Source: Naegleria gruberi (lineage: Eukaryota). Taken from it: 64,000 nt of DNA. Made by a program: the position numbers and the translations under genes. Shown here in pieces: positions 12,025-58,283 of the stretch (position 1 is the first letter of the stretch; the number at the start of each line of letters is the position of its first letter). Under the pieces are notes generated by a model. The model saw only the letters and a program-made list of their open reading frames with translations. It was not told the DNA's origin and searched no databases. Location: NCBI GenBank assembly GCA_000004985.1, contig GG738854.1; one strand, given 5' to 3'.

Positions 12025-12091
12025 TTTTCACTAGTTTGGCAATGAACTATATGAAATTAAACACTGATTATTTGGAAATGAAATTTATATC

Positions 12092-20930: not shown

Positions 20931-23900
20931 ATGGTTATTGTTTCTGTTGTAGCTACTGTTATTATGATTTCAACTTCTGTAGGTTACAATCCACCAGAGC
21001 CAAAACCAGATTCATTACAGGCCTATAAGAATACTGCCTATACCATCTATCCTCTTTTGAATGATGTTGATCCAAAAGGAAACAATCTCACCCTCGTCAA
21101 CATTACCCAACCATTGTACGGAACAGCCAAATTACTCGCAGGTAATAAGGTTCAATATACCAGTCCAAAATATTACGCAGGAAATGAAACATTTTATTAT
21201 ACAGTTTATAATGGATATGGATATGCAGAGAGTTATGTTAAAATTGAAGTTTTGAATAGAGTTCCAGAAATTGTAACCATCTATAAGGATATTTCAAAGA
21301 ATAGTCAAAACAATATCATTGATGTTTTCAATTATGTTACTGAGAGTGGAGCTCAAATTAGTGATGTAGATGGTGATATTTTAACAATTGTTAGTATTAC
21401 AACACCAAATGTTGTAGGAGCTGTTGCTACCATTGTTGACTCTCAATTCATTTATTATACTCCACCAACAGGTTATAATAGTGCTGACTTTTTCAATTTT
21501 ACCATTACTGATGGAAATTCAACTGTTAGTGACACTATTTATATCAATGTTTTGAATGATGCTCCAACCAGTAATCCAGATGATTATGTCATTCCAAAGA
21601 ATAAGGTTGCCTCACTCAATTTATTGGCAAACGATTATGATGTCAATTCTGACAATATTACCATTGTTACAGCCAAGTCAGGACTTGGTTCTAAGGGTGT
21701 TGTTGTCTTTTCAGATGATGGTCTCTCTGCTGAATATTATCCATCTGCTGATACTAAGGTCTATAGTGATGCTTTCGAATATACAATCACTGATGGAGAT
21801 AAGGAGTCGGCTACATATGTTTTTGTCAGAGTCAAGAATTCCCCTCCAACCATGGAAAGCAAAACCATTACCATTCCAAAGAACTCTGAGAATAATACCA
21901 TTTCTTTAGAATATGCAGAGAGTGATATTCTCGATACTGTAACAATTACTGTTTCTAAAAAGCCAACTAGGGGAACTTTCACACTTTCACAATTGTCCAC
22001 CTCCAATAACGTTAATTATTTGAATCAACAATGGATGGTTGTAACTCAAAATACTTACACTCTTATTTATACTCCTGAAAAGAGTGTTTCCTACACTGAT
22101 AGCATTACATTCAAGATTGATGATGGCTATGACTTCACATATGCCACCTTTACTCTTAATATTGTCAATTTGCCACCTGTCACTATTAATGATACCATTG
22201 TTTGTCAAAAGAATCAACAAGTCACACTAGATGTTGTTGCCAATGATTATGACTTGAATGGAGATGTCCTCAAGTTATCTTCTTCAGCTGCAGATTGGAC
22301 CAATAGCCGTGGAGGTGCTACAGTCTCAAGAGTTGATGATGTTCAATTGAAATATGTTGCCAAGAGTGGTTTCTTGGGTGAAGATGTTGCCTCATATGTT
22401 GTAACTGATTCTGACAGCACTGCTGCATTGACTTCTACTGGTTATGTTATTGTCACAGTTGTCAATACTCCTCCTGTTGCTGTTGATGATACTATCACCG
22501 TTCCAAAAGGAGTTCTTTCCTCTTTGGATGTATTAATTAATGACAGTGATCCAAACGGAGATGCCATTGATTTCAATGCTACCAGCTTTACATCTACAAG
22601 TGGTGTTGTTTCCAGTGTCAATGTTACTAGTCCAAGAAATTTGTTGAATTATCAAGCTTTTGATGTTGTCTATCAAGATAAGATTACTTATACCATTAAG
22701 GATATTGATGGGGCTACTGCATCTGCCACTATCACCTTAAATGTTGTCAATACTGCTCCCGTTGCTAATGATGATACTATTAGTGTCAAGTGGAATACAA
22801 GCATTGTTATTCCTGTATTGGCCAATGATTATGATCAAAATCCTGCTGATAGAAGCGTTCTCACTGTCAAGACAATTAATGCTGTTTCTTTGAGTGGAGG
22901 TGTTGCTACTTCTTTCAATGGTGGTAAGAGCATCTTGTTCACTCCAACACCTGGTTTTGTTGGAAGCTTTGTTTTTACTTATACTATTACCGATTCTGAT
23001 TTAGAAAGTAATGCTGCAACTGTTACTGTCACTGTTTTTAATAGTGCTCCTGTTCCAGTCAATGATCAAGCTACTACTCACTGGCGTGATACATCAGTTA
23101 CTGTTGATGTGCTCAGTAATGATTCTGATCCAGAGGGTGATAATCTTTATATTCTCAGTGCTACTCAACCAAGTAAGGGTACTGTTTCAATTGTAACTCT
23201 CGATAATGGAAAGGATGGTATCAAATATTCCATCTCATCTTCTCAACAATTTGTCGGTGAGGAAACCATTACCTATACCGTCACTGATTATTCCATGACT
23301 GCAGTAGCTACTCTTAAAGTAACAGTTACAAATCAAGCACCAGTCGCCTTGGGAGATTATGTCAAATTGCATTGGAGTACCTCATCTATTACCATTCCAG
23401 TTTTGGCCAATGATACCGATGCCAACAATGATCCAATTACTATTGGCACAGTTACACCTCCTAATGGATTTGCTGGTACTATTACCAAGATTGATTCAAA
23501 TACCAAACTTCAATTCGTTCCAACTGCTCAATCAAAGGGTGTTCAAGTTGTAACCTATGTTGCTTCTGATGGACAAACCACAAGTGCAGGTGCAAGCTTG
23601 ACAATTGAAGTTACCAATGCTGATGCTCCTTCGGCAAGCACAATTTCTAAAACTGTTCACTGGTCCACTCAAACTACTGGTACTACCATTACATTATTCT
23701 CATCAGCTCGTGATGGAGATGGTGATTTGAATCAAATTGATTTGGCTAGCTCACCAACTGTTGCTCCATCTCACGGTACAGTTACATTGTCTAATGGGGA
23801 TTCCAATACTCTTCCAAACGTTTTGTACAAGCAAAGTACTAACTATCTTGGTTCTGATACTTTCAAGGTACAAGTTACTGATGGTGCAGATAATGCCATT

Positions 23901-26900
23901 TACACTGTCAATATGAACATTTACAACAACAAACCAACTCTCACTGCTGCCTCAACAACAGGTCATTGGTCCAAATTTGCTTCTGGTTATTCAGTTGATG
24001 CCATCTTGTTAACTTCAGCTCAAGATGCCGACTCTCAAGATACTCTTTCACTATCTTCAATTTCTCCAATGGATTTCATTACCATTAATGGAAATCAAAT
24101 CACATTCTTACCTACTGGCTCATTTGCTGGAACAAAGGTCTACACTGTTAATATTACAGATGGTATTGAAATTAGTTCTACATCTTGGACTGTCACTGTT
24201 CAAAACAACGATCCTTCTGCTGTTACAACTACTACAACAATTCACTGGTCTAAGGGATTTGAATTGATTGATGTATTATCTACCATTACAGACGCTGATT
24301 CTGATAGCATTGATTTCTCCCTTGTCAGTACTGCTGCTACAGCAAAAGGTACACCATCCATTCAAGTTTCTGGTTCCAAGAAATTAGTATTGTGGACTCT
24401 TCCATCAGTATCTGTTTCAATGTTAGGAAGTTCATCCTTCTCCATTCAATACACTGACGGATGGAAGACTAAAGAAGCCACCTACACTGTCTCAGTAACA
24501 AATTCTGCTCCAGTTGCCACAGATAAATCAACAACACTCCATTGGTCCAAATATTCAACTGGTGTTTTGATTGATGTCTTGTCAGGTGCTACTGATACCA
24601 ATTCAGAAGATAGTATTTCTTTGACCAGTTCACCATTTTCCTCTCCATCTCATGGAACAGTTTCAGTTAGTGCTGGTAAGGCACTCTATACACCAACACA
24701 AGGATATGTTGGTTCTGATTCATTCACATACTCTGTAACTGATGGTTTGGAAACTTCAACCAAAACTGTCAGTTTGACAATTACCAATCAAAAACCAGTT
24801 GCCAATTCTGACTCTGTCACTATTCACTGGAATACATCTTTTGTTGACATTAATGTATTAGGAAATGATGTAGATTCTGATGCCGAGGATACACCAATTA
24901 TCAAGACCGGCTCAGTTACTACACCAACTCAAGGAACTGCCTCAATTGTTGATGCCACTTTGGGTGTAATTAGATACACCCCATCCCAATCAGTGACAAC
25001 AGGAGCAAAGACCTTCACTTATAAAGTAACAGATGGAGCTGAAATTTCCACTAGTGCAGCAACCGTCACAGTTACTGTTACCAATGCTAATTCACCAAGT
25101 GCTTCTTCCTTGTCAAACACAATGCATTGGAGATCTGCTTTGGTAGGCACCAGCTACTCCTTATTCAATTCTGCTACTGATCCTGATGGTGATGCTCTCA
25201 AAATTAATATCCTTACTAATCCTTCTGGAACTTATTCTATTAACTCTGATGGAACTTCTGTCTTTTTCCAAACGGCTAGTGCAAGTAAGGGAGTTCAAAC
25301 ATGTACCTATACTATTTCAGATGGTTTGTCCACCTCCTCTTCTGCTACCATTACAACAACAGTCACAAACAGTATCCCAACAGCTCAAGATATCTCACTA
25401 AAATATCACTGGAGTATGATTGGAACTGGTTTAACTATTGATGCCATTTCTAAGGCAACTGATAGCGATGCTGCAGATATTGCCAACTTGAAATTGAATT
25501 CAGTTAGTCCCTCTCAAACCTATGGTAACGTTGTTTCAATGAGCCAAGATAAGACTAAGATTATCTATCAACCAACCAATTTACAAGTTGGTAATGATAC
25601 CTTCACATATTCAGTAACTGATGGATTGGACATTTCTACATCGTATACCGTTACAGTAGAAATTACCAGTACTCAAGCAGATCCATCTGATCAAATTTAT
25701 AGTGTTCATTGGAGAGCAGTACCTATTGATTTTAATGTCTTACAAAATGTTTCTAGCAGTGGAAGTGATCAACCAATTTTGGATGGAATTGATACTCCTG
25801 CATCACATGGTACAGTTGCAATTTCACAAGATCAAAAGTATGTGACCTACTCTATGGGAAGTGTCTACGTTGGAACTGACAAATTCGTTCTTAATTATCA
25901 CGTTGGTCTTAGTAATAACAAAATTACTGTAACTGTCAATATTTACAACACACAACCAACTGGTACCTCAAAGACTGTATCTACTCACTGGAGAACTCCA
26001 ATTAATATCAATTTACTTACAGGAGCCAATGATGCTGACTCTCTTGATATTCCAAATCTCTCTGTTCAACTCTCCTCAACACCTTCAAAGGGTGGCTTAT
26101 CCACAGTTTCTTCAGGTAGTGTCACTTACACACCAGAAACAAGTACAAGTGCCTTTATTGGTACCACGTCTTTCAATTTCAAAATTAATGACGGAAATTT
26201 ATTATCATCAAATGTACCTGTATCTGTCACTGTTACAAACACTGCTCCAAAGTCATCTTCAAAGAGTGTCAATGTCTTGTGGAGCGATTTTGTTTCTGGT
26301 AAGGAACTTTCTGTTCTCACATTATCTCCTGCTGATAGTGACGATAATAGTGATCCAATTAGAGTCAAATCATTCGGATCTACAAGTAAGGGAACTGTTG
26401 TAGCTAAAGGTGCATCAGGTTCTGATGCTAATATTGCCATTATTAAGGGTGTTACTGGAGAAAAATATATTGGTGCTGTCTCCTTCACCTATGTTGTGAC
26501 AGATGATGCAGCAAATGGTGATGTTACCACTACTGTCAGTGTCAATGTTTATAACAACAAACCAGTTGCAGTCTCTGATAGTGTCACAACACACTGGAAT
26601 GTCAATTATATTGATATTGATGTGTTGGCAAATGATTCTGATCCAGACTCTAATAGTTTGAGCATTGCCAGTGTTTATGGTTCATCTGCTACTACTGCTC
26701 CAATCATTACTGGTGGTAAGATTAGATATTATCCAAAGACCTCAACTGTTGGTACTGTTGATGTTTTCAAGTATGAACTCAGTGATGGAGCTCAATCAAG
26801 TGAAGGAACTGTCTCTGTCAACGTTACAAACACTAAACCAACAACTAGTTCATTCTCTCAAACCTCTGTATGGTCTGCTGTTAAGAATGGTGTATACTTC

Positions 26901-29900
26901 TCTGTGGTTGCTTCATCATCAGATGCTAATGGAGATTCCTTGTCATTAGCTTCCTATACTTCAATTACCCAAGCTCAAGGAGCATTGTCCACTGTTGGAA
27001 GTGGTTCTTCTGCTCAAATTTCATACGTCCCAACAAGTGGTTTCACTGGAGCAATCAAGCAAATTGTATTCACCATTTCAGATGGAAAGGAGACAAATAC
27101 TGGAACAATTGACGTCACTGTAACAAATAACTTGCCAACAGCCAACACTGGTGCATTTACCTATCACTGGAGACAAGCTTTATTAGCCAATAATATTGTC
27201 TTGACCTCTAGATTTAGTGACAATGATGGTGATTCTGTAACAGTTTCACAAGTCACTTCTGGTGGAAGAGCTGGTGTTACCCTTGTTGCAACCAACACTG
27301 TTAAATATCAATTAGCTTCTGCATGGAAGGGTTCCGATAGCTTTACTGTGCAATTCACTGATGGATGGGGAAGCTCAAGTGCAACTTTCCCAGTTACTGT
27401 AACAAACTCTGTTCCAGTTGCTTATGATATTGCTGTTAATGTTAATCACCTTTCTTCTTCCTCGGTCAGTATTCCAATATTGTCAAGAAGTGATGGTCTT
27501 AAACCAACAGATGCTGATTCTGCAGATTCAGGCGCTCTCACCATCTCTTCATTTACTCAGCCAAGTATTGGTACTGTTACATTATCATCGGGAACTTTTA
27601 CCTTCCAAAACGTTCAAGGCAATTTGGTAAACCAAACCTTTACTTACACAGTTTCTGATGGCTTTGAGACAGTAACTAAAACTATTACCGTAAATATTCT
27701 TGATCAATCTCCAACAGCTAATAGTGTTAGCAAGACCTATCACTGGAAGACTATTCAAAGTGGACTTGACTTGAACTTTATCACAGAATCTTCTGCTACT
27801 GATCCAGATGGAGATACATTGTCAATTTCTGCATTTACTCAACCACAAACAGGTACAGGTACTGTTGCTAGAAAAGCTGGCTCGACAACCAATCTCATAT
27901 ACACTCCACCAGCAGGAACAGCCCCACTTACTGCTACCTTTAAATTCACTGTCAGTGATGGTAGTATTTCAGTTGAAAACACGGCAACAATTTCCTTGAC
28001 AAATACTGCTCCAGTTGCTGTTTCTGATTCGGTTTCCAAGTTGTGGAATAATAAGGTCTTTACCATTAATCCACTTGCTAATGATTCTGATGGTAACGGA
28101 GACACAATTACAATCTCTAGTGTTGATTCAACTTCTTTGATTCGTGGTGCTACTTTAACTATCTCTTCTGATAAGCTCTCTATCACTTACACCTATACTG
28201 GAAGTGGTGCCACTGGCACAGATAGCTTTAAGTATACTATTACTGATGGAGCATCTACCTCAACTGCAACAGTGACCATCACATTTACCAATCAAGAACC
28301 TGTTGTTTCATCTGTTACTCAAAGTGTCAAGTGGAATTCAGCACTAACTGTTAATTCTTTATTGTCTAGTTGTTCAGATGCTGATGGAGATACCTTGTCA
28401 TTTGTTTCTATTTCTTCAGGTCAATATGGTTCTGTTGTCACCAATGATGCATCAGTTGGAAAGATTACCTATACACCAGCTGCATCTATTTCCTATACCA
28501 GTAAACCAAATTCTGGCAGATGGGAAGCTGTTGATGTATTGACATTCAAATGTACAGATGGTTTGGCTGAGAAGTCTGGCACTCTCTCTATCACTATTTG
28601 GAATACTCCACCAACAGGAAGTAACAAGAATGGAACCTTTACCAGAACTTACAGCTCTCCAACTCTATCAATTCCAGAGAGTACTTTCAAGACTGGTGCT
28701 AGTGATGCTGATTCCGATACCATTTCTTTGAGCGCTGTCCAAATGTATTCCTCATCAGATTCTTCATGCTCAGTGGTTTTGCAATCTGACAAGTCAGTTA
28801 AATTCACTTATGGTCAATCCTTTGTTGGAACTCAACAATTCTATTTTACTTTGAGTGATGGTCAATTGACTAATACATACACTTACACAATTACTATTTC
28901 CAACACTTTAACTTGTATGGATTACACTCTCACAACCACAAAGAATAGTGCAGCAACTCAATTCGAAGATTCCATCAAGAGTCAATGGGCAACAAACTTT
29001 GGTAGTGAATCAATTACACTCTCAATAGTATCTACAACCAATTTGAATTCTGTTGGTACCATTACAACTGTCAGCAGTAAGCTCACCTATACCCCCACTG
29101 CCAGAAGATCATGCACAGGAACTAATTGTTATGCTGTTTATAGAGTTTCTAACACTGCTTCCCAAACTGCTGATTGTAATATTTATGTAGTACAACCAAA
29201 TAATGCACCAACTGCAACTAATTGGGACTATGAATTCTCTATTAGAAGAGATGGTAACGATGCTCGTACTTTTGATTATTTGACAGACTCTGCTGCTACC
29301 GATTCTGATACCTCTGACAGTCTCAGCATTTCAATTTCTAGTACTGGAACATGTAGCTCTGCTGGTACTTTGTCAATCGTTAGTAATAAGATTAGCTTTG
29401 TAAGATCCTCATCATACGCTGATCAAAGATGTACATTTACATTGACAGTTAGCGATAATGATCTTTCAAATCCACGTACAACTTCTGTAATCATTGGTAT
29501 CAAGCCAATTAGCTCTCCACCAATTGCAGTCAGTGATTCCTTCACAGCTGTTTACAATAACAAGATTGATATCCTTGCATCTGACCTATTAACTAATGAC
29601 TACGATCCTCTTGGGGGTACTTTTGTATTTGCTGGTATTGATTGCCCGGATTCTACATATTGTAAAAATGCTGGAATACCAACCATTTTGAATCCAAGTG
29701 ATAGTGCAAATAATAGAATTATCAGAGTTTTACCAAAGACTGGAAGTTGTGAAGCCGAAAAAGTCAGATACAAGATTACTTCTGTCCAAGACAGTACCAC
29801 TGCCTATGCTGATATTAATATCAAGTATAGTAATTGTGTTTGTAGTCAAATATTCGATTTGATTTTCATTTTGGATGGTAGTGGTTCTATATCAGCAACC

Positions 29901-31403
29901 AATTGGAAGAATATGGTTTACTTTGTAACAAACATTACCAGTGGATTTGATGTTAGCTCAACCGGTACAAATATTGGTATTGTACAATACGGTACTGATT
30001 CTACTCTTCACTTATCTGTCAACGCTGGTACCTCAAAGACAACAGTCAATAACATGGTTTCAAGTATTACTCAAAAGAAGAGTAGTACAGCCACCATTTT
30101 GGGTATTAACACTGCTGTTAATAACATGATTAATTATGGTAGATCTTCTGTGGCTAACAAGCTGTTCATTCATATTACTGATGGTGAGTCAAATGTTCCA
30201 TCCAACTGTTACTCAATGTACTCTCTTTTGGGAGTAACTGATACCGTCTCAAACAGGTTCCCTGGAAAATCGTGTTTAGATTGTGACTGGACTAATTCTA
30301 GTTCTAAGGCTCAACCATGTGCTGAAGCAACAATTAGATCAGCTGAAATCAATTCTTGGAAGGGTTATCGTCAATTAACTATTGGTATAGGTGATGGTGT
30401 AACATCTTCATTCGGTATGAGTCAAATTCAAAAGATGAATTACGATCCTTTAAAGTTCTTCGTAGTTGACTGGAGTGATTTGACCAGTATTTATCAATCA
30501 ATTATCGATGAAGCTTGTAATACTGTAACTACCTCATCTTCTTACACTAAGAGACCAATTTCAGATTTTGATTATACCATTTCATTCACATCAAGAGTTG
30601 TAACTTCAAGAACTGCTTTTGATTCCACTTTTGAAATCACAACCTTTACCTACACATTGAAAGCTCCATCAAGCAGTGCAAGTGGTGCTATTACTCGTTT
30701 CACATTGGCCAACAATATCAATTCTACATATTATAATACCTACAATCCGTCATTCCCTGTTTATGTTGGTACTGATGTTGTTTCCTCACTCTCTGGTTTC
30801 ACTTGGGAATCCTTGCCAAATGGAAAAATTGTTTCTCTCGGGTCAACCAAGACCTTCTCTGTCTCTGTCTATGGAAATGTTCCAGCTGCAAGTATCTCTT
30901 ATGCAATTACTGGCTCATCTTCATATGCAGTTTCAACAATTACAGGACCCGCCACATCTGCCACCTATTCGTTCATTCCACCAACTTCTGAATCAACAAC
31001 ATTGAGAGCTACATACTGTTCTTCCACAAGATGTATGATTCGTGCAGTATTCACTTCTCCAATGCAATATGCTGATGTTGCTAAGGTCTGTAAATTGTGG
31101 AACTCTAAGGCCATTCCTGTAACCATCAAGACAGCCACAGAAAAAACAGAAGTTGCCAATATTTCAGGTGGATACACATTCTTCATTGGCTTGAATAAGG
31201 ACAGTGGATCTTGGAGATGGGTTGATGATAAGTCAGTTGCTTCCTACACTGATTGGAAATCTGGTGAGCCAAACAATAACAGTCCAACCAGTTACAGTGA
31301 TTATTATGTTTGGGCTCAATCAACAACTGCCAACTCTCCTTGGTGGAATGATGTTCCAATGGTTTACACAGTAACAGCTGTTGTTTGTCAATACAAGTTG
31401 TAA
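20931..31403 (+). CDS. Giant secreted adhesin-like protein: signal peptide, ~27 tandem cadherin-like ~95-aa repeats, Cys-rich region, vWA domain, C-terminal C-type lectin domain
   Basis: 3490-aa uninterrupted ORF. Signal peptide MVIVSVVATVIMISTSVG. Repeats carry T-x-H-W…I-D-V-L-x-N-D-x-D-x-(N/D)-G-D-x-L…G-T-V…Y-T-P…F-x-G-x-D-x-F-x-Y-x-V-x-D-G…V-T-V-x-N-x-x-P. vWA: DLIFILDGSGSISATNW…GIVQYGTDS…ITDGESN (about 29866..30510). C-type lectin domain: GYTFFIGLNKDSGSWRWVDDKSVASYTDWKSGEPNN…WNDVPCQ-like (about 31085..31400). Confidence 0.85.
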   Translation: MVIVSVVATVIMISTSVGYNPPEPKPDSLQAYKNTAYTIYPLLNDVDPKGNNLTLVNITQPLYGTAKLLAGNKVQYTSPKYYAGNETFYYTVYNGYGYAESYVKIEVLNRVPEIVTIYKDISKNSQNNIIDVFNYVTESGAQISDVDGDILTIVSITTPNVVGAVATIVDSQFIYYTPPTGYNSADFFNFTITDGNSTVSDTIYINVLNDAPTSNPDDYVIPKNKVASLNLLANDYDVNSDNITIVTAKSGLGSKGVVVFSDDGLSAEYYPSADTKVYSDAFEYTITDGDKESATYVFVRVKNSPPTMESKTITIPKNSENNTISLEYAESDILDTVTITVSKKPTRGTFTLSQLSTSNNVNYLNQQWMVVTQNTYTLIYTPEKSVSYTDSITFKIDDGYDFTYATFTLNIVNLPPVTINDTIVCQKNQQVTLDVVANDYDLNGDVLKLSSSAADWTNSRGGATVSRVDDVQLKYVAKSGFLGEDVASYVVTDSDSTAALTSTGYVIVTVVNTPPVAVDDTITVPKGVLSSLDVLINDSDPNGDAIDFNATSFTSTSGVVSSVNVTSPRNLLNYQAFDVVYQDKITYTIKDIDGATASATITLNVVNTAPVANDDTISVKWNTSIVIPVLANDYDQNPADRSVLTVKTINAVSLSGGVATSFNGGKSILFTPTPGFVGSFVFTYTITDSDLESNAATVTVTVFNSAPVPVNDQATTHWRDTSVTVDVLSNDSDPEGDNLYILSATQPSKGTVSIVTLDNGKDGIKYSISSSQQFVGEETITYTVTDYSMTAVATLKVTVTNQAPVALGDYVKLHWSTSSITIPVLANDTDANNDPITIGTVTPPNGFAGTITKIDSNTKLQFVPTAQSKGVQVVTYVASDGQTTSAGASLTIEVTNADAPSASTISKTVHWSTQTTGTTITLFSSARDGDGDLNQIDLASSPTVAPSHGTVTLSNGDSNTLPNVLYKQSTNYLGSDTFKVQVTDGADNAIYTVNMNIYNNKPTLTAASTTGHWSKFASGYSVDAILLTSAQDADSQDTLSLSSISPMDFITINGNQITFLPTGSFAGTKVYTVNITDGIEISSTSWTVTVQNNDPSAVTTTTTIHWSKGFELIDVLSTITDADSDSIDFSLVSTAATAKGTPSIQVSGSKKLVLWTLPSVSVSMLGSSSFSIQYTDGWKTKEATYTVSVTNSAPVATDKSTTLHWSKYSTGVLIDVLSGATDTNSEDSISLTSSPFSSPSHGTVSVSAGKALYTPTQGYVGSDSFTYSVTDGLETSTKTVSLTITNQKPVANSDSVTIHWNTSFVDINVLGNDVDSDAEDTPIIKTGSVTTPTQGTASIVDATLGVIRYTPSQSVTTGAKTFTYKVTDGAEISTSAATVTVTVTNANSPSASSLSNTMHWRSALVGTSYSLFNSATDPDGDALKINILTNPSGTYSINSDGTSVFFQTASASKGVQTCTYTISDGLSTSSSATITTTVTNSIPTAQDISLKYHWSMIGTGLTIDAISKATDSDAADIANLKLNSVSPSQTYGNVVSMSQDKTKIIYQPTNLQVGNDTFTYSVTDGLDISTSYTVTVEITSTQADPSDQIYSVHWRAVPIDFNVLQNVSSSGSDQPILDGIDTPASHGTVAISQDQKYVTYSMGSVYVGTDKFVLNYHVGLSNNKITVTVNIYNTQPTGTSKTVSTHWRTPININLLTGANDADSLDIPNLSVQLSSTPSKGGLSTVSSGSVTYTPETSTSAFIGTTSFNFKINDGNLLSSNVPVSVTVTNTAPKSSSKSVNVLWSDFVSGKELSVLTLSPADSDDNSDPIRVKSFGSTSKGTVVAKGASGSDANIAIIKGVTGEKYIGAVSFTYVVTDDAANGDVTTTVSVNVYNNKPVAVSDSVTTHWNVNYIDIDVLANDSDPDSNSLSIASVYGSSATTAPIITGGKIRYYPKTSTVGTVDVFKYELSDGAQSSEGTVSVNVTNTKPTTSSFSQTSVWSAVKNGVYFSVVASSSDANGDSLSLASYTSITQAQGALSTVGSGSSAQISYVPTSGFTGAIKQIVFTISDGKETNTGTIDVTVTNNLPTANTGAFTYHWRQALLANNIVLTSRFSDNDGDSVTVSQVTSGGRAGVTLVATNTVKYQLASAWKGSDSFTVQFTDGWGSSSATFPVTVTNSVPVAYDIAVNVNHLSSSSVSIPILSRSDGLKPTDADSADSGALTISSFTQPSIGTVTLSSGTFTFQNVQGNLVNQTFTYTVSDGFETVTKTITVNILDQSPTANSVSKTYHWKTIQSGLDLNFITESSATDPDGDTLSISAFTQPQTGTGTVARKAGSTTNLIYTPPAGTAPLTATFKFTVSDGSISVENTATISLTNTAPVAVSDSVSKLWNNKVFTINPLANDSDGNGDTITISSVDSTSLIRGATLTISSDKLSITYTYTGSGATGTDSFKYTITDGASTSTATVTITFTNQEPVVSSVTQSVKWNSALTVNSLLSSCSDADGDTLSFVSISSGQYGSVVTNDASVGKITYTPAASISYTSKPNSGRWEAVDVLTFKCTDGLAEKSGTLSITIWNTPPTGSNKNGTFTRTYSSPTLSIPESTFKTGASDADSDTISLSAVQMYSSSDSSCSVVLQSDKSVKFTYGQSFVGTQQFYFTLSDGQLTNTYTYTITISNTLTCMDYTLTTTKNSAATQFEDSIKSQWATNFGSESITLSIVSTTNLNSVGTITTVSSKLTYTPTARRSCTGTNCYAVYRVSNTASQTADCNIYVVQPNNAPTATNWDYEFSIRRDGNDARTFDYLTDSAATDSDTSDSLSISISSTGTCSSAGTLSIVSNKISFVRSSSYADQRCTFTLTVSDNDLSNPRTTSVIIGIKPISSPPIAVSDSFTAVYNNKIDILASDLLTNDYDPLGGTFVFAGIDCPDSTYCKNAGIPTILNPSDSANNRIIRVLPKTGSCEAEKVRYKITSVQDSTTAYADINIKYSNCVCSQIFDLIFILDGSGSISATNWKNMVYFVTNITSGFDVSSTGTNIGIVQYGTDSTLHLSVNAGTSKTTVNNMVSSITQKKSSTATILGINTAVNNMINYGRSSVANKLFIHITDGESNVPSNCYSMYSLLGVTDTVSNRFPGKSCLDCDWTNSSSKAQPCAEATIRSAEINSWKGYRQLTIGIGDGVTSSFGMSQIQKMNYDPLKFFVVDWSDLTSIYQSIIDEACNTVTTSSSYTKRPISDFDYTISFTSRVVTSRTAFDSTFEITTFTYTLKAPSSSASGAITRFTLANNINSTYYNTYNPSFPVYVGTDVVSSLSGFTWESLPNGKIVSLGSTKTFSVSVYGNVPAASISYAITGSSSYAVSTITGPATSATYSFIPPTSESTTLRATYCSSTRCMIRAVFTSPMQYADVAKVCKLWNSKAIPVTIKTATEKTEVANISGGYTFFIGLNKDSGSWRWVDDKSVASYTDWKSGEPNNNSPTSYSDYYVWAQSTTANSPWWNDVPMVYTVTAVVCQYKL
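21540..29650 (+). repeat. Intragenic tandem array of diverged ~285-300-bp coding repeats (about 27 copies)
   Basis: Periodic recurrence at the DNA and protein level of the AATGATTATGAT / GTTTTGGCCAATGAT (…VLANDYD…) and ACTGTTACTGTT…AAT…CCA blocks. Copies are diverged rather than identical. Confidence 0.7.
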
Positions 31404-44291: not shown

Positions 44292-45617
44292 TTGCTCGGC
44301 ATCACCATCATCATCATTAATAATAATAATTGTAATATTGGAAAAACTAACAACTTAATGAATCCATCAACTGCTCCAAAGGAAGCCATTTTGAGCTCCA
44401 TTCCTGCTCAATACTTCCCTCTCACTATTGTTATTGGCACAATTTCTACCATTGCTACAACATATACCTTGTCAACTTCTCAAGGACATACCAAACCATT
44501 CCCATACACTGATATTACTCACACAGCAAGATTTACTCCAGAAAGATATGTCTTTCGTGTTGGTATGCTTGCTATGGCTGTGGTCATGGCATGGAACTGG
44601 AATTTGCTCTATACTTGGTTGAGAAATGTACAACAACAAATCGATACTCTCCAAAAAAGAGTCAAGCTCATCAAGGAACATAATGAACATAGCCACAGTG
44701 TATTGAACACAATTCTCATGATGAATCCACCTTCTAATCATCTTCTCAACATTATTTGGTACTTGGGTATTGGTGCTTCTGTTGCTATTACTATTTCTTC
44801 CATGTGTATTACTTCTAATAGTGATATGCCTTGGACCATGCACGTTATTGCTGCTTCAAGCTTTTTCATTTTCTGTCTCGTTGCTCAAGGTATTACCACC
44901 TACAAGTCATACAAATTATATCAACAATTGAATCATGTCAGAGAGGAATCAAGTGCTGACGAAAGTCTTGCCGAAATCTCTGCTGATGCTCAAAGTCTTA
45001 CCTTCATGACCAAGAAATCATTGTACTTGAAGATTGGTATTACTGGTCTCAGTATTGCCATGTTGATGGTCAATATATTGAGCAGTGTTGCTGCTACTTC
45101 TGGACAAGGTGCTTCCACCACTGGTTTTGGAAATGTTCAACAACAAGTTAGTCTCTCAAAGTTGAATCTCAATTCTCATATTCCAACAACATCTCAACAA
45201 CAAACTGTTATTGAAGATATTCATTTGAAAACAACAACTAGCAATATTGTTGAATGGACCTGTACCTTGTTGATTGTCATTTACAATATCACCTTTGCTA
45301 TGGATTGGAGTAGTTGTAACTTGTTGACTTCTATTGGTCAAATTAATACCCCACAACCAAAGCAAACACCAGTTCAACAAACACGTAACTTTGGAGTTAC
45401 TCCATCTCATCATGCTTACAATTCTAGTAGATACGGTCAATACGGTCTTGTGCCAAATCATGATCCTGCTACAGAAATGTCAGATGTTACAAACTCTGGA
45501 CGTACTGTTCAACAACAAGCTGTCTATGTCTTCCCATCTTCTGTTTCTTCCAAGCAAGACCAAGATTGTACTCCTGTTGTTACTTCCCTCTATCCTGCAA
45601 CTTATAACATTCAATAA
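44292..45617 (+). CDS. Multi-pass membrane protein, possibly Frag1/DRAM/Sfk1 family, with Ser/Gln-rich C-terminal tail
   Basis: 441 aa. The N-terminal TM region has …HTKPFPYTDITHTARFTPERYVFRVGM…, which resembles the DRAM/Frag1 block ([25 protein letters not shown]). There are at least 5-6 hydrophobic helices. Confidence 0.45.
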   Translation: MLGITIIIINNNNCNIGKTNNLMNPSTAPKEAILSSIPAQYFPLTIVIGTISTIATTYTLSTSQGHTKPFPYTDITHTARFTPERYVFRVGMLAMAVVMAWNWNLLYTWLRNVQQQIDTLQKRVKLIKEHNEHSHSVLNTILMMNPPSNHLLNIIWYLGIGASVAITISSMCITSNSDMPWTMHVIAASSFFIFCLVAQGITTYKSYKLYQQLNHVREESSADESLAEISADAQSLTFMTKKSLYLKIGITGLSIAMLMVNILSSVAATSGQGASTTGFGNVQQQVSLSKLNLNSHIPTTSQQQTVIEDIHLKTTTSNIVEWTCTLLIVIYNITFAMDWSSCNLLTSIGQINTPQPKQTPVQQTRNFGVTPSHHAYNSSRYGQYGLVPNHDPATEMSDVTNSGRTVQQQAVYVFPSSVSSKQDQDCTPVVTSLYPATYNIQ

Positions 45618-46109
45618 AACATCGTGATGATTCAAATTTTTTTATCAGATGCAATATTGGAACTTTACCATGCGAACTTGAACAATCTACCACACTAACA
45701 GGATGGGTTGAATTCGAATTGTTGGGGAATTTTTAACGACTGACCATTTCAATAGCTCAGGTTCAAAATTTGAATTAGGCCAAGACAACTAGCATCCCAG
45801 ATTAGCATATGAAACATATGCAATTAATCACGTCAACACACATTCGCAACTTTGGGCGCAATAACCACACTCTGAATCTTTTCTGGAATCTCTACTGTGA
45901 AGTTCGGCTGGAACAAATTTCCCGCCTTGAAAACATACGTTTATTTTCGATACAACTATCATCAACAAAAGGAAAAAAATACCACCGTCTGACACCGTCA
46001 TCTCTCTTTCTCTCAAGTTGTTATTGACAACGACGGCATCAACTCTTATCAATAGCATACTAATTTATAGATCAGCTTTGCTTTTGTATTTAGGGCGGGG
46101 CTTATTCAA

Positions 46110-47786
46110 ATGCAAGAAAGGAGTGTTGTAGGTAACCCTTACCAACAACCTCAATCACCTAATAATAATCCTCCAAAAAGACTTGAACGACAACGATCGA
46201 CTACATCGAACATGGCACATAGAATACCAAGTCGTTCCTCACTTGGTGGTAATCGTTCTGGACAAGAAGCAAATAATAGTAATATTAAATTAAAATCAGT
46301 AGAGAATGACCTCATCTCTCGGAGGGGTAGTAAACAATTAAATAGACCTAAAAGCACCATATCTAAGGTTTCTGTAGGAAGTGAAAGAATGAGAGAAGGT
46401 GCTATACAACGAATCGAATCTACAGTATTTCTCTTTATTAATGCTTTAAAACTAGAAAAACCAATTCCTAGGTTTATTTACTTTTTACTTAACTGGATAG
46501 TTATTTGGCAAACTCTTAGTCTGGGAGTATCAATAGATTTTAATTGGGGCGAGTATGGTCGTTATTTATACCATGCTGTGGCTATTCCCCGAACTTTTGG
46601 ATTCCAATTTCTGCCCTATGATGCTTTCATTGGATTGGCTATTGCTGTGTACATATTGGAAATAATAGCTCTATTCACTATTTATCTGACATATAGGTCG
46701 TTCATTAATGGAAGTAAATATTGGTCAAAAATCAAAACAACAGCTAGGATAACATTTGCCCTAATGATTATTATAAGTTTACCTTCAACGTATGGAATGA
46801 GTTCCTCATTTTGGGATTGCGATTATTCTCAAACTGAAACAATTTCTGGAAAGGTTACATTTACCTTGAAAAGATTTCCAACCATTGAGTGTTGGGGAGC
46901 TACCAATGGAGCAATGGCTGCCTTATCAATAATAGCCATGGTTGTACAGATATTTTTCACAACGTTTGCTGTATTTATATTCTGTGATACTAGTATATCA
47001 AGTAAGAGCATGTTTGCAATGGAAAATAGCCTCTTTCTCGCTGTGATTGTCTCCACAAATCAAATCTTCCTTATTGTTTCCCAAGTGACACCATCTATGG
47101 TTTATTATTTAAGACCAGTATACTTTATAGTTGTTTCATTAATTTCAGTAGGAGTTCTTATTTGGCAGACACCTTTTTTGTTCAGATCGATGAATTCAGT
47201 TTATGCAGGGATAACAACAGGTAGAATAGGTGTTGCGGCTGGGTCGCTTGTAGCCACATTAATCAATAAGGAAGATGAGTGGCAAGTTGGGCTAGGAATA
47301 ACATTTGGCCCAGTTGCAGGATTTATAATTTTCTTTTTTATTGGTTTTATTGGTGTGGAAATATATACTAGGGTTTTAAAATCAAGAGGAAGAAAGTTAT
47401 TGGAAGGACTGATGGAGTCAAGAAACATTGCCATCCTCATAGACAAAGACTATTACTACATTACACAATTCATTAGACATTCCACTAAGGCAAATGAGAA
47501 GGAAAAGACTTTAGGAAAAAGCTTCTCCAGAATGGTAGTCAATTACAAAGATGCCATTCCATCCGAGACCCTGCTTGCCATAGCTTTATTTATGAAATAT
47601 GTATTAGAAGACAATTCGACAACCTTTATTCTCATGCTATTGAAAAAGGCTGAAAAACAACGAAATGACTTTTTGACACGATTCAAGCTTTTCCTTAGAT
47701 TCAGAGAAATTGAGAGAGCTACTTCTACAGGAAGAAACAATTTTGAATTGGACCACATTTTGGAGGGAATTCAAAAGAAAAGCTGA
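46110..47786 (+). CDS. Multi-TM N-terminal region, either the first exon of the downstream PAS-cyclase gene or a separate polytopic membrane protein
   Basis: 558-aa ORF with about 8 hydrophobic helices after a Ser/Arg-rich N-terminus. Its 3' end overlaps the next ORF (frame B, called from 47710) in a different frame. A candidate 130-nt intron (GTATTA at 47601 … TCTACAG at 47730) would fuse the two in frame. A frameshift or two separate genes cannot be excluded. Confidence 0.45.
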   Translation: MQERSVVGNPYQQPQSPNNNPPKRLERQRSTTSNMAHRIPSRSSLGGNRSGQEANNSNIKLKSVENDLISRRGSKQLNRPKSTISKVSVGSERMREGAIQRIESTVFLFINALKLEKPIPRFIYFLLNWIVIWQTLSLGVSIDFNWGEYGRYLYHAVAIPRTFGFQFLPYDAFIGLAIAVYILEIIALFTIYLTYRSFINGSKYWSKIKTTARITFALMIIISLPSTYGMSSSFWDCDYSQTETISGKVTFTLKRFPTIECWGATNGAMAALSIIAMVVQIFFTTFAVFIFCDTSISSKSMFAMENSLFLAVIVSTNQIFLIVSQVTPSMVYYLRPVYFIVVSLISVGVLIWQTPFLFRSMNSVYAGITTGRIGVAAGSLVATLINKEDEWQVGLGITFGPVAGFIIFFFIGFIGVEIYTRVLKSRGRKLLEGLMESRNIAILIDKDYYYITQFIRHSTKANEKEKTLGKSFSRMVVNYKDAIPSETLLAIALFMKYVLEDNSTTFILMLLKKAEKQRNDFLTRFKLFLRFREIERATSTGRNNFELDHILEGIQKKS

Positions 47787-50700
47787 CTTGTTGAAACATT
47801 TGCAAGTTAGATTTTGGAAGAATGTTGCCTCAGGTCAAGATCTCTACTCTGTTACGAAACAAATGGAAGAAACTTCTACAGAATGCTATCAAACGTTTGG
47901 TAATTTAATGGTCAATCATCACAATAACAAGACTGTCCTCCGAGCATATGCATCATATTTGGAAGAGTTTGCATTTGAACCCCTATTTGCCGAGGAACTA
48001 TACAATGAGGCAAACATTTTAGAAGAAGAAGAGGTTCTCAAATCAAAACCTAAATCTAAAAAGCCTATTACAGCTCCAAAAACAAATCTTGCAAACTTGG
48101 ACGGAAAACTTGTTACCAATCTGGATGATGATGATGCTATCCTAGAATCAGCTAGTCAGCAGGGAGAAATGGATCCAGGTGAGCGTTTAAAGGAACAATA
48201 CAGAACTGCTATCAATAAGAGAGAAGAAAATAATTTCATTCTCATTTTCCTTGTCTCACTATGCGTTGTTTCAATTATTTACATGATCATTACTTTGGCT
48301 ATGGATTTAGCATTCACAAATAAGAACACAAGTATTGTAGAAGTTATTAAGGAAGCTTGTATATTAGGACCTATTCCATACGCTCTTCTTTCTGACATGA
48401 GACGAATTAATTTACTGGATGATGAGAGCTTGATTCAAAATTCAACAAGATTTTTCAATGATTACCAAGTAAGGCTCTCTTCTTTCAAATCAGTTTTGGA
48501 AACTTTTATTCACTCCTCAGAGGGATCATTATTTTCAACAAAAATGAAAGAAGACTTCACAAATAATGACAAATCATACAATGTAAGTGTGTTAATGTTT
48601 TTATTATTTACACCAACTTTATAGGTGGCTATAACCAAACTTGAGAATGTTACAGGAATTGAATTCTTCACCAAAAATGCCTCTATTTCTGCTATTGCAA
48701 ACGCTTTTTCATCTCTTACCAATGAAATTTCCTTATTCAACCTTACAACATATTCAGAAACCTATAGGAATTTCTACTTTTCCATGATGTTCGTTAACAG
48801 ATTGTCATTTACAAATGCTTTTGAACTCTTTTACTCTTCAATGATTTCTGGTGAACTTGTGGATTTACAATACGATACAAATGTGTTTGTGATTGTCTTT
48901 GCTACTCTTACTGCTGCCTATTTTATTTATATCCTTGTTTATCTTGGTATGCTGATCTCACATGTTGGTCATAGAAAGCACATCCTTAAACTGTTTTCAA
49001 ATATTCCAAAACAAGAAGCCTCAAAAATTAGCCATGAATTGGAACTTAAAACTGACAACACCATCATTCCACAAAAGAATTACTTTATTACACCAGTCAG
49101 AGGAATTATTATTTTGATTTCAATAGCTTTATCCATTACTACCATTGCCTCCGCTCTTATCTTATATGAGGGTCTAACTCAAATGAATAGTTCAATTCTT
49201 GTAATGAGAAAGTTGGAATACTCTTCAAAAGCTCTCATGACTTCTCAAAGAATATTATTCAAGATACAAGAATTATTATTAGAGGATGCATCAGCACTAG
49301 GTGTAAACAAGACTCAATTCTTCCATGAAATTGATGCTCATATTATGGATTTTGAACAGGGTTGGACTGCTTTAAGGTATGGTACTGCAGAAGACTCTTT
49401 CAGTTCCCTCTCTGGAGTGACGGGTATAATTGATGAGTTATTACAATCATCTAATTGCTCTTTGTCGAGTAATTCTAGTGTTGCAAGCGAATGTACTGGG
49501 CTTGACTCAATTGTAGAGGACTTTGACGGCTCAGTTTTGAAGTTAAACCAAAATGCATTCAGGGAAACATTTTCTAGAGATGTATTACTTGATGAGCTAC
49601 AGGCAGTTTATGATCAGAGTGTAGAGTTGTTCAATAGTTTTTCCATTATTATGAATTCTTATGTTTCAAACTTTTCCAATCAGCAAAAAGTTATTGGAGC
49701 TGTATCTACCTCATTGGCTTCCTTTTTCCTTTTGATTACAGTATTTTTGTTATATAGAGCAATTAGCAGTTTTGGAAGTGAAAATCACCAACTGAGAATC
49801 ATGCTAAACCATTTGCCAGTGGACATTCTCGATAGTGATGGTGATATTCGTTCATATATCATGTATTATACCCTTGGAAACTCAAAGAAAAAGTCTGACA
49901 AGAATGGACAACAAGTGAGTAATGAAAAAGCTATTCTTGAGGCAGCTGTTGCTGGAACAGCAGTTTGTTCTTCATATGGATCAATTGATATTTTCAACGA
50001 ATCTGCTCAAAAGATGTTTGGGTACAGATTGGATGAAGTGATTGGTGTGTCTTTGGCTCAAATGTTTACTAATGAAAGTCAGCCATCACTTCATAGTGTG
50101 CTTTCCAATATGGCAATTTCATCTAAAACTTATGGTGAAAACTTGACATTACAAGGTCAAAGAAAGAATAAGACAACCTTCCCAGTTCAACTCAGAATTT
50201 CAGTATCAGTAATTGAGGGAAGAAATATTATATCTTGTTTTATGACAGATTTAACAACAGATAGAGAGCATGATCTCATGTTGGCAGAAGAAAAGAAGAA
50301 GAGTGAATCATTACTTCTTAACATTCTTCCAGAGTCTATTGCACAACGACTTTCAAATGGAGAAACATTTATTGCTGACAGTCACGAGGATGTCACTTGT
50401 TTGTTCAGTGACTTGGTAGGATTTGTTGAGGTTTCTGTACACATGTCCGCAACTGAGCTTGTGCAAACTTTGAATATTATTATTAATGGTTTTGATTCTC
50501 TTGTGCCAATTTATCAAATAGAAAAAATCAAGACTATTAGTGAGAAATACTTTTGTGCTGGAGGTCTTAAGGTCAGGTCTGATGAAGGAGACCATCCTGA
50601 AGAGAGAACTCTTAAATTTGCTATGGATATGTTTGGAGTTGTCTACAATTACAACACAGATTTTCACAGAAACTTTACTGTTCGTATTGGTATGCATTGT

Positions 50701-52000
50701 GGACCATTGGTAGCCGGTGTTTGTGGTACTTTGAAGTTTGCTTATGACTTGTGGGGAGATGCTGTAAATGTAAGTTATTGTTTTCACTTGTATTTTGCTA
50801 ACTACTAAATAGACTGCTTCAAGAATGGAGTCTACAGGTAAATCTGGAAGAATTCAAATCACAGAAAAGTTACACAGCAAATTATGTGGAAAGTATCAAT
50901 TTGAAAAGTCTAGTGTTGTGGCAAAAGGAAAAGGAGAAATGACCACATATCTATTGAGCACTGAATACTATCAAAACACTTCTCCAGATGCTATGCCACT
51001 AGACAGTACCCTGAAAATTAGAGCAAGAGCTATGGGACATCCTGTTGGTGATGAATTCTCTGAACATCATTCCGAGAGTGGTCAACAAATGGAAGGAACA
51101 GAAGATTTTAAAAATATTAAACCCTCCACACCACCTCCGACCAGTCAAACCTTGAATCCAGTATTAGCCACCATAACTAAAGTTTCCTCATTATCTTCTC
51201 TAACTTCTGCTGCAGAAAAGGAGGAAAAGGAATTAGTTGCTAATGCCAATAACAACAATAATAACAGTACTCCCTCCCTAAACGTTGATCCAGTAGCTGG
51301 TTCAAATAATTCAACAACAACAACTGGACTTGATTCAATTCTTAGTAGATCTAGAAGTTTGTCTGTTAAGGTACAGCAACCAGTATTGCTTGATTTAAAG
51401 AATACAGAGAATAATAACTCTGGCAATCTTAGAAGATTCTCTCTTCCTCGATCAGGATCACCAATTTCTCCAGTCGGTTCTGAAATTAGAAATCCATTTA
51501 GTCCTGCCAAACAAACCAGCAACAGTAACGTGACAAGCAATGTGACCATACCAAACAATACTACAAACGAAGCTACGGAAACAACTGAAGTATCTACAAC
51601 TCCACCGCCTTCATCTTCTGTTTTAACAAATCAACATATTGAACTTCCACTATTACCAACAACTCAATCCCTTAGTAGTAATTCTCAAAGTAGAAATTCA
51701 AGTAGAAGAGCTAGCGTGAGCTCAGAGTGCTCATCTTCATCTTCAGGCACTCTTGAGATTATGAATAAGCCAGTGTTGAATGGGAATATTAGAAGATCAA
51801 TAGAGAGGCAAAAGATTTATGACCAAGAAACACACAGATATAGCGAACAAGATTCAGATGATGAGAATAAGAGTGTATTAGAAGTTCACAAGTTAAGGCG
51901 AGCATCTCAACCTTATGTAAATATGGACCATCATCACAGACATGAAAGTAATAGTTCATCCTCTGAAAACCATGCACTAAAGGAAGAAGAAAAAGAGTAA
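47710..52000 (+). CDS. Receptor-type adenylyl/guanylyl cyclase (class III) with TM segments, PAS domain and canonical catalytic domain; multi-exon
   Basis: Exons about (46110..47600?) + 47731..48582 + 48625..50769 + 50813..52000. Intron 48583..48624 (GTAAGT…TTTATAG) joins …DKSYN|VAITKLENV…. Intron 50770..50812 (GTAAGT…AAATAG) joins …LWGDAVN|TASRMESTGKSGRIQITE…, restoring the cyclase WGDxVNxASRMES motif. PAS: AILEAAVAGTAVCSSYGSIDIFNESAQKMFGYRLDEVIG. Cyclase core: VTCLFSDLVGFVEV…KIKTISEKYFCAGGL…RIGMHCGPLVAGVCG… The tail is Ser/Thr/Asn-rich. Confidence 0.75.
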
Positions 52001-52647
52001 AGTTCACAAAAAAATGCCATTGCACAATGACACCATTCATGATGATATTGTAGTTTTCCAGAAACCATGACATAAATTTTTTCACCTCAACACCAATCAT
52101 TTTTCCATCTCATCCATGTTGATCATTAAAATCCATCTATTCAATCTGTTTTTTGATCAATCTATCAAACAATCGATCATGATTAATCAACAATTTCAAT
52201 CATATTGAATAAAGACTTGATGTTATTTGAAAAGGCTCAATTTTCAGCTAATTATCAAAAGATGTTGTTTGATTTCTTGTGATGTTTCAAAATAAAGAAC
52301 TTTAAAACACAAAAAGTTGTTTTTCCAAGTTGCTTAAAATCATGTTAGAAGCCAATCTCCTCCGATGTGGCATTTGAATATAAATTTCTTATAATCCTTT
52401 CTGAGCTCAACGACAGAAGGTTGCTCCGAACCTTTTTCCACGAATATGTCAAGTGCTCACTCTTGATTTTAATTTGGGATATGGATATTGCAATATTACA
52501 TAAGAGTGTTGGTTCTTGATTAATGATTGCTTACACAAGTTTGGACGTTATTGCTCCTGAACATGTGGTTTTGTTCAAAGAACACCTTATCAAATTTGCT
52601 TTCATTCTCTCCCTTTTTTCAAGTGTTTTATTTATCATGTCAAGTCT

Positions 52648-52697
52648 NNNNNNNNNNNNNNNNNNNNNNNNNNNNNNNNNNNNNNNNNNNNNNNNNN
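52648..52697. other. Assembly gap (run of 50 N)
   Basis: Literal n characters in the sequence. ORFs that span it (52523..52705, 52527..52886) are artefacts. Confidence 1.
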
Positions 52698-57677: not shown

Positions 57678-58283
57678 TTACTTTTTGATAACTGTTTTTT
57701 GAGAGGAACTCTTTTTTGGAATATTTGGTCCTCCTTTCACTTCTTCCATATGCTTTTGAACAATTTTCTTCAATTGTTTTAAGGTACTTTGAGATGGAAC
57801 AATACCCTTCTTATTGACAGGAGTTGAACTGCTGGAAGTTTTGGTTGGTGGAGGAGGTGCTGATTGACCAGTGGTTGGTAACTTGTTCAACTTGTTAAGC
57901 ATTCTCATCCTGTAAGAAAGTAACATTCTATCAATTTGTTTCAAATTATTCACACGATTGGAATCTTGAATCATTTGAATTCTTTCTCTTCCCTGACGAC
58001 TGACCAATGCCTTCTTTGTGGTCCATTCCTTCTTGTTAATGGTTGCAAGACGAAATTTTTCCCTCTTACAGATGAGACTTGGTCTAGCATTAGAATAGTG
58101 ATGTGTTGGAATTGTCTGGACGGCCCAATCCTTGTTGAAGATTCCCTTTTGTCTATTATCTCTAAATTTCAAGCTGGAGGAGAGATTTGGACGATGTGTA
58201 ACTGTTCTACGATTGAGTGATTTGCGAGCAACTTTAAATCTTGCTAAATGAACTCGTTTAGTGACTGATTGTGGTCTGATCAT
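57678..58283 (-). CDS. Small very basic protein (possible mitochondrial ribosomal or RNA-binding protein; family unassigned)
   Basis: 201-aa ORF, Lys/Arg-rich throughout (KRVHLARFKVARKSLNRRTVTHRPN…), with a proline-rich PPPPTKTSSSS segment. No motif identified. Confidence 0.35.
   Translation of the reverse strand: MIRPQSVTKRVHLARFKVARKSLNRRTVTHRPNLSSSLKFRDNRQKGIFNKDWAVQTIPTHHYSNARPSLICKREKFRLATINKKEWTTKKALVSRQGRERIQMIQDSNRVNNLKQIDRMLLSYRMRMLNKLNKLPTTGQSAPPPPTKTSSSSTPVNKKGIVPSQSTLKQLKKIVQKHMEEVKGGPNIPKKSSSQKTVIKK

Follow-up and report, generated by a model that had tools for sequence, protein, structure and literature searches.

How two overlapping reading frames come to encode one protein is the question raised by a locus in a 64,000-nucleotide stretch of Naegleria gruberi DNA (assembly GCA_000004985.1, contig GG738854.1; the whole stretch is called the window here). 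An open reading frame (ORF) for a polytopic membrane protein lies at 46110..47786 in frame A, starts with ATG and encodes 558 amino acids. The body of a PAS-cyclase follows in frame B, in an ORF that begins in the ORF track with a non-ATG codon, TTG 47710, and runs to 48624. Both ORFs were found as a preliminary description of this DNA had listed them, and their 77-nucleotide overlap was confirmed; three-frame translation revealed that frame B is free of stops already from 47677, which gives an open-frame overlap of 110 nucleotides. The preliminary description placed the transition within 47590-47790 and offered a cryptic 130-nucleotide intron, a sequencing indel or two separate genes. We conclude that the locus is very probably one membrane-anchored PAS-cyclase gene with no intron at the frame change, and that the frames are separated by a 1-nucleotide insertion at 47782. 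The frame change is located at this single base, a G, at the far end of the interval proposed before.

The insertion was revealed by comparison with a metagenome contig (L001; ENA ERZ929261 k127_19722, 4738 nucleotides, source metagenome PRJEB11402). In a pairwise alignment, L001 is 98.66% identical to the window over 45400..50146, and the sole difference near the junction is the G at 47782. The local DNA reads AAAAGCTGAC in the window and AAAACTGAC in L001, so that the codons AAA AGC TGA (Lys, Ser, stop) in the window correspond to AAA ACT GAC (Lys, Thr, Asp) in L001. The placement of the gap is unambiguous because the G stands between a run of A and a C. The stop created by the insertion is 47784..47786. 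The ORF of L001 is continuous across the junction (...EGIQKK-T-DLLKHLQVRFWKN...), and the protein that it encodes, P0001 (846 amino acids), is 97% identical over 100% of the fused N-terminal query. At the junction P0001 reads ...FREIERATSTGRNNFELDHILEGIQKK-T-DLLKHLQVRFWKNVASGQ..., which is frame A of the window to 47781 and then frame B directly; around the site of the G its sequence is EGIQKKTDLLKHLQ.

47782..47782, plus strand: extra G, a 1-nucleotide insertion relative to the intact state, seen as a single-base gap in the L001 alignment.

For the remainder of the gene, the comparison was made with L003, a further contig of that sample. L003 is 98.8% identical to the last coding exon of the window, and its coding indels there are of 3 nucleotides only. 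Besides the G, four coding indels separate the window from L001 and L003 over the 5.9-kb gene, and these are 3, 6, 3 and 3 nucleotides long. Indels that are not multiples of three are confined to an intron and to flanking DNA, and G 47782 is the sole frame-breaking difference. The indel suggested earlier is thus supported by the one-base difference from a nearly identical sequence, but its site is 47782 and not within 47601..47730. A pattern search for the two alleles, G present or G absent, in the DNA of JGI metagenome contigs returned 0 matches.

The in-frame codon indels between the window and the metagenome relative are +CAA at 46142, +GGTGGG at 46244, -AAA at 51110..51112 and -CAT at 51929..51931. 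The two N-terminal ones add Gln and Gly-Gly within a low-complexity stretch (P0001 versus window). In the 5' intergenic DNA, a 17-nucleotide indel (45764..45780) and a 2-nucleotide indel (near 46008) were observed against L001; non-coding substitution divergence there is 0.7%, below the figure of about 2% for synonymous divergence within the gene.

After deletion of the G and splicing of two introns, the gene has the following structure.

46110..52000, plus strand: corrected gene, about 1934 amino acids after deleting G 47782 and splicing two introns.
46110..47781, plus strand: coding, frame A; low-complexity N-terminus, polytopic block and start of the TPR_TmcB region (ORF, 97% identical to P0001).
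47783..48582, plus strand: coding, frame B; remaining TPR_TmcB region, acidic linker, transmembrane helix and loop (Pfam TPR_TmcB and tblastn).
48583..48624, plus strand: intron of 42 nucleotides, GTAAGT...TATAG, which contains an in-frame TAG.
48625..50769, plus strand: coding exon; three transmembrane helices with large loops, PAS and the first three quarters of the class III cyclase domain (Pfam PAS_9 and Guanylate_cyc, hydropathy).
50770..50812, plus strand: intron of 43 nucleotides, GTAAGT...CTAAC...AATAG; splicing gives WGDAVNTASRMES.
50813..52000, plus strand: last coding exon; remainder of the cyclase domain, then a long tail rich in Ser, Asn and Thr; stop codon 51998..52000.

Both introns are supported by independent observations. 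L001 has a 2-nucleotide deletion (48620-48621) inside the first intron, which would break a coding sequence, and an ORF from Naegleria fowleri ends at the equivalent point. Splicing of the second intron merges two partial Guanylate_cyc matches (profile positions 3-132 and 136-182) into one of 3-182 out of 183, with 155 bits. Pfam scans of the corrected, spliced product gave TPR_TmcB at 30.9 bits (cut-off 27), PAS_9 at 50.4 and Guanylate_cyc at 155. The protein begins with about 100 low-complexity residues, followed in a hydropathy scan by about 6-8 hydrophobic helices at residues ~120-411. A cytosolic helical TPR_TmcB region occupies ~500-641, with the Pfam match at 562-641. Next are four more transmembrane helices (~709, 911, 985 and 1180), spaced by two large loops, and then come PAS (1260-1368), a single class III cyclase domain (1408-1588) and a tail of about 345 residues, which is of low complexity and rich in Ser, Asn and Thr. 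The break falls about 10 residues into the conserved TPR_TmcB domain.

Homologues of the gene are read continuously through the junction. The N-terminal block is 39% identical to an N. fowleri ORF over 240 amino acids. This ORF, at 11579..12532 of the N. fowleri sequence L002, is a single one across the equivalent of the junction (LLKRAEKQ...ILEGVKIKMRKLRYLIIQFWKNL; LLKRAEKQPSSSIFMKYNIFIRTRETEKCLSNGRLNSAHSEIILEGVKIKMRKLRYLIIQFWKNL...), and the ORF of this species has no break over the equivalent of 47601..47830. Frame A of the window from 47601 to 47781, that is, the proposed intron and the next 17 codons, aligns with N. fowleri at a BLOSUM62 local score of 90, whereas shuffled sequences gave 22.4±4.4 and none of 2000 shuffles reached 90. 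When the N. fowleri ORF was used in tblastn, the match continued in frame B of the window from 47773 onward. Frame B upstream of the G scores 15 against N. fowleri, within its shuffles (19.4±3.8). The two stretches are listed as follows.

47601..47730, plus strand: conserved coding sequence VLEDNSTTFILMLLKKAEKQRNDFLTRFKLFLRFREIERATS, described earlier as an intron (GTATTA...ACAG), on the basis of the N. fowleri score and the family alignment.
47677..47781, plus strand: chance open stretch in frame B, non-coding.

The wider family shows the same continuity. Word-indexed protein searches gave 2 and 4 matches, and the family became visible by exhaustive phmmer, in which P0001 as a query matched 130 relatives, with E<=1e-30 for 46. 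Among them are many proteins of 1500-1700 amino acids with one matched stretch over query residues ~100-830, which reaches across the junction. With MAFFT, 21 family members align colinearly past this point; they include proteins of Willaertia magna, N. fowleri FDP41_001886, and the N. gruberi proteins NAEGRDRAFT_71437 and NAEGRDRAFT_61738. The family motif R.REIE ... NFEL..IL..LEKKQ..L..LHK.FWK is bisected by the stop in the window, and EKKQ..L..LHK.FWK is the helix-forming part at the break. TPR_TmcB, PAS and Guanylate_cyc occur in this order in six of six full-length relatives scanned with Pfam, and in five of the six the TPR_TmcB match spans the junction-equivalent residue, starting about 9-12 residues before it. 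These comparisons demonstrate, at the level of sequence, that the continuous reading is the ancestral, family-wide state and that the rest of the gene in the window is intact.

Comparison with paralogous cyclases had been proposed as a check, and it showed the same N-terminal block within one polypeptide with the cyclase. NAEGRDRAFT_71437 (XP_002673480.1, 1596 amino acids) and NAEGRDRAFT_61738 (XP_002682792.1, 1563 amino acids) have a polytopic N-terminal block and a continuous TPR_TmcB region like those of the window gene. The same holds for W. magna ABK040_006184 (KAL9658648.1, 1565 amino acids), the top full-length match (E=1.6e-174, 41% identity). TPR_TmcB, PAS and Guanylate_cyc were confirmed with Pfam in NAEGRDRAFT_71437 and ABK040_006184, and NAEGRDRAFT_61738 was compared by alignment. 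All three are uninterrupted ORFs, and the window copy differs from them by the 1-nucleotide insertion at 47782; it also has a longer low-complexity C-terminal tail.

These results bear directly on the intron. Joining of the two ORFs by GTATTA(47601)...ACAG(47730), or by another in-frame GT/GC...AG pair, possibly with retention, was considered. The GT and the AG exist, the segment of 130 nucleotides is 1 modulo 3 and stop-free in frame A, and its excision leaves an open fused frame. However, the interior of the segment is conserved as frame-A protein, by both the N. fowleri score and the 21-protein alignment, in which it is colinear with 20 relatives. With the segment excised, 43 conserved residues found in every aligned relative would be lost, and the conserved frame-A residues of 47731..47781 would be discarded or misread as well. 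The two supported introns of this gene have GTAAGT donors, which GTATTA does not resemble, and L001 is continuous by one base fewer, with no intron required. The Pfam TPR_TmcB scores of the spliced products are no better (34.8 bits for the 130-nucleotide splice and 34.2 for a 106-nucleotide splice, against 33.9 for the frameshift); these scores are uninformative, since the TPR_TmcB profile starts to match this protein only past the junction. Across the sequences scored, the match ranges over 30.9-34.8 bits, against a Pfam gathering score of 27. Such splicing is thus extremely improbable. The cryptic intron is no real feature, and the frame transition is a one-base insertion in a continuous exon.

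The 130-nucleotide pair had been described as the only GT...AG pair that fuses the frames, and this did not hold. From the same donor, frame-fusing acceptors are available at 47706, 47718, 47730 and 47820; upstream GT donors (47535, 47538 and others) and GC donors likewise fuse the frames. This pair is therefore weak evidence for an intron, because many others also qualify. A 25-nucleotide GC-AG candidate at 47782..47806 restores the frame as well, and was rejected because it is too short and would remove the conserved LLKHLQV of the L..LHK.FWK motif. In a regular-expression survey of the window for GTAAGT introns, five candidates were found whose acceptors were misplaced by the heuristic, and a length of 130 nucleotides is not claimed to be atypical. 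Nor is the open frame-B overlap unusual: off-frame stop-free runs of at least 35 codons hold 26% of the off-frame codons of the gene, and they make up 6% of its off-frame stop-free runs. The window has 30-40% G+C. That 47601..47730 has no stop in frame A follows simply from its being coding sequence.

The locus could also natively hold two genes, a seven-transmembrane (7TM)-like membrane protein of 558 amino acids that ends at 47786 and a PAS-cyclase that starts from ATG 47863. The stop at 47784..47786 and the in-frame ATG do exist, and in one assembly of N. fowleri the orthologous locus carries two annotated genes (495 and 1043 amino acids). The ATG falls, however, within the stretch for residues 562-641 of the corrected protein, where TPR_TmcB is matched, and the stop cuts the conserved motif EKKQ..L..LHK.FWK. 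The relatives and the paralogues of the same genome are single proteins of 1500-1700 amino acids, with all domains on one polypeptide. Two native genes are thus very improbable, and the start of the cyclase at ATG 47863, as suggested before, was not borne out.

The split in N. fowleri sits elsewhere and has its own explanation. The orthologous locus consists of FDP41_002182 and an adjacent PAS-cyclase model on VFQX01000028.1, and of FDP41_010147 and FDP41_010148 on a second contig; its genes and domains follow the order found in the window. The frame of VFQX01000028.1 is itself broken, about 45 codons before the N. gruberi site. This break lies in a run of eight T (L002, ~11570-11578; region 11560..11640), where the other copy has seven. 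P0013, the product of a Logan contig, and FDP41_010147 (P0257, on the other contig) have one T fewer and read through continuously (KVLFSLFLKDVSHSPHYF...). The frame break in the T run led to the calling of two genes (FDP41_002182, 495 amino acids, and the PAS-cyclase, 1043 amino acids). The breaks in the two species differ in position and kind and are thus independent; each looks like a single-base problem and not like biology.

If the G were real, the full-length protein could in principle be rescued by +1 ribosomal frameshifting at AGC-UGA-C, in which Ser would be read, U skipped and GAC read next. Termination at UGA is weak when C follows, and known +1 sites of the antizyme type are UCC-UGA-U and, in yeast OAZ1, GCG-UGA-C. 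The window site resembles them in having an in-frame UGA followed by C, at which a +1 shift restores the homologous reading: the product ...QKK-S-DLLKHLQ... is colinear with ...QKK-T-DLLKHLQ... of the relative. Unlike antizyme and OAZ1 sites, it is unconserved and has neither a downstream structure nor a slippery P-site codon. AGC offers no good +1 re-pairing, and the downstream 47787..47886 folds at -14.7 kcal/mol with z=+1.03, 173 of 200 shuffles being at least as stable. Neither L001 nor N. fowleri nor any of the 19 other aligned family members has the site, which is therefore not a conserved recoding signal. The resemblance to antizyme sites is almost certainly accidental, and rescue by frameshifting has hardly any probability. 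The same low standing is given to a real G with a newly arisen antizyme-like rescue, or, in a milder version, to a frameshift that would uncouple a free-standing 7TM, TPR-less membrane protein from the cyclase in N. gruberi NEG-M.

One continuous gene with a single added base thus remains the preferred reading, and the G itself may have two origins. It may be a base-call or consensus error in the draft Sanger scaffold of strain NEG-M, to which we give slightly better than an even chance; the cell would then make the full-length cyclase. Alternatively, it may be a very recent, possibly heterozygous, frameshift allele in NEG-M, which we put a little below even; this copy would then have no cyclase output, its product being a 558-amino-acid membrane protein cut short where the TPR domain begins. 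The presence of a single lesion in a 5.9-kb gene, the purifying selection described below and the 50-N gap in the draft scaffold, 4.9 kb from the site, were counted for an artefact or a very recent event. Counted for a real allele were the roughly one hundred redundant cyclases in NEG-M, which is a laboratory strain, the place of the insertion outside any homopolymer, the somewhat higher downstream dN/dS and the lack of a NEG-M protein model.

Substitutions between the window and L001 also bear on the age of the lesion. The ratio of non-synonymous to synonymous substitution rates (dN/dS) is 0.04 upstream of the frameshift (46110..47781; 7 synonymous and 1 non-synonymous) and 0.27 downstream (47783..50145; 10 non-synonymous and 10 synonymous). 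The synonymous share downstream is 10 of 20 substitutions, where neutrality predicts 21% (p=0.004). These values point clearly to purifying selection on both sides of the junction. An old, decayed pseudogene was rejected, as the gene has only one lesion in 5.9 kb and neither ratio is near 1.

Several observations weigh against the reading that we prefer. Downstream dN/dS is somewhat above upstream dN/dS (10 non-synonymous to 10 synonymous against 1 to 7, Fisher p=0.10), which could reflect relaxed constraint after a real frameshift, or merely less constrained loops. The insertion stands outside any homopolymer, and homopolymers are the commonest context of consensus indel errors. In the protein collection searched, no NEG-M protein model was found for any exon of the gene, although NEG-M models of neighbouring genes and paralogues are present there. 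The absent model would fit annotators treating the gene as disrupted, and is silent on the cause of the disruption. Exact look-ups of the 558-amino-acid ORF, of neighbouring ORFs and of NAEGRDRAFT_64383, for an annotated locus or independent assemblies, returned nothing on record.

Judged by sequence, the gene is assigned to the heterolobosean TmcB-type membrane PAS adenylate/guanylate cyclases. Apart from introns, the reading frame of this family is uninterrupted; in the assembly it is broken by the insertion at 47782, and in the 98.7%-identical relative it is whole. Dictyostelium TmcB ('tiny macrocysts protein B') gave its name to Pfam PF25474 TPR_TmcB, and by the Pfam scans this domain is what the window gene shares with it. 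In class III cyclases, a single catalytic domain implies a homodimer, and the protein, having one cyclase domain, would therefore work as a homodimer. The membrane and PAS modules would, by analogy, serve as sensory input to the cyclase. Dozens of cyclases are encoded in Naegleria genomes; in the pangenome of the genus, 81 cyclases and 26 adenylate cyclase orthogroups have been reported (PMC9928731).

The main value of these results is for annotation, since a member of the Naegleria cyclase family is seemingly without a protein model in the NEG-M collection searched, probably because one base breaks its frame. Correction of the N. gruberi and N. fowleri models would yield a full-length sensor-cyclase of ~1900 amino acids for comparative studies of cyclic-nucleotide signalling in Heterolobosea. 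If the G is real, the locus would exemplify a null allele of very recent origin in a laboratory strain long in culture, within a family of redundant sensors, and this would be biologically unremarkable.

Other features of the window are as follows.

6057..8540, minus strand: ORF, exact match to EFC47539.1 (NAEGRDRAFT_64367).
20931..31403, plus strand: uninterrupted ORF of 3490 amino acids.
52648..52697: 50-N scaffold gap.
57678..58283, minus strand: ORF, exact match to EFC47544.1 (NAEGRDRAFT_64383).

The 600 nucleotides before the gap (52048..52647) have no counterpart in L003, which has 185 nucleotides between the flanking matches. The mismatch over 52048..52697 is either a structural difference or a local misassembly beside the gap.

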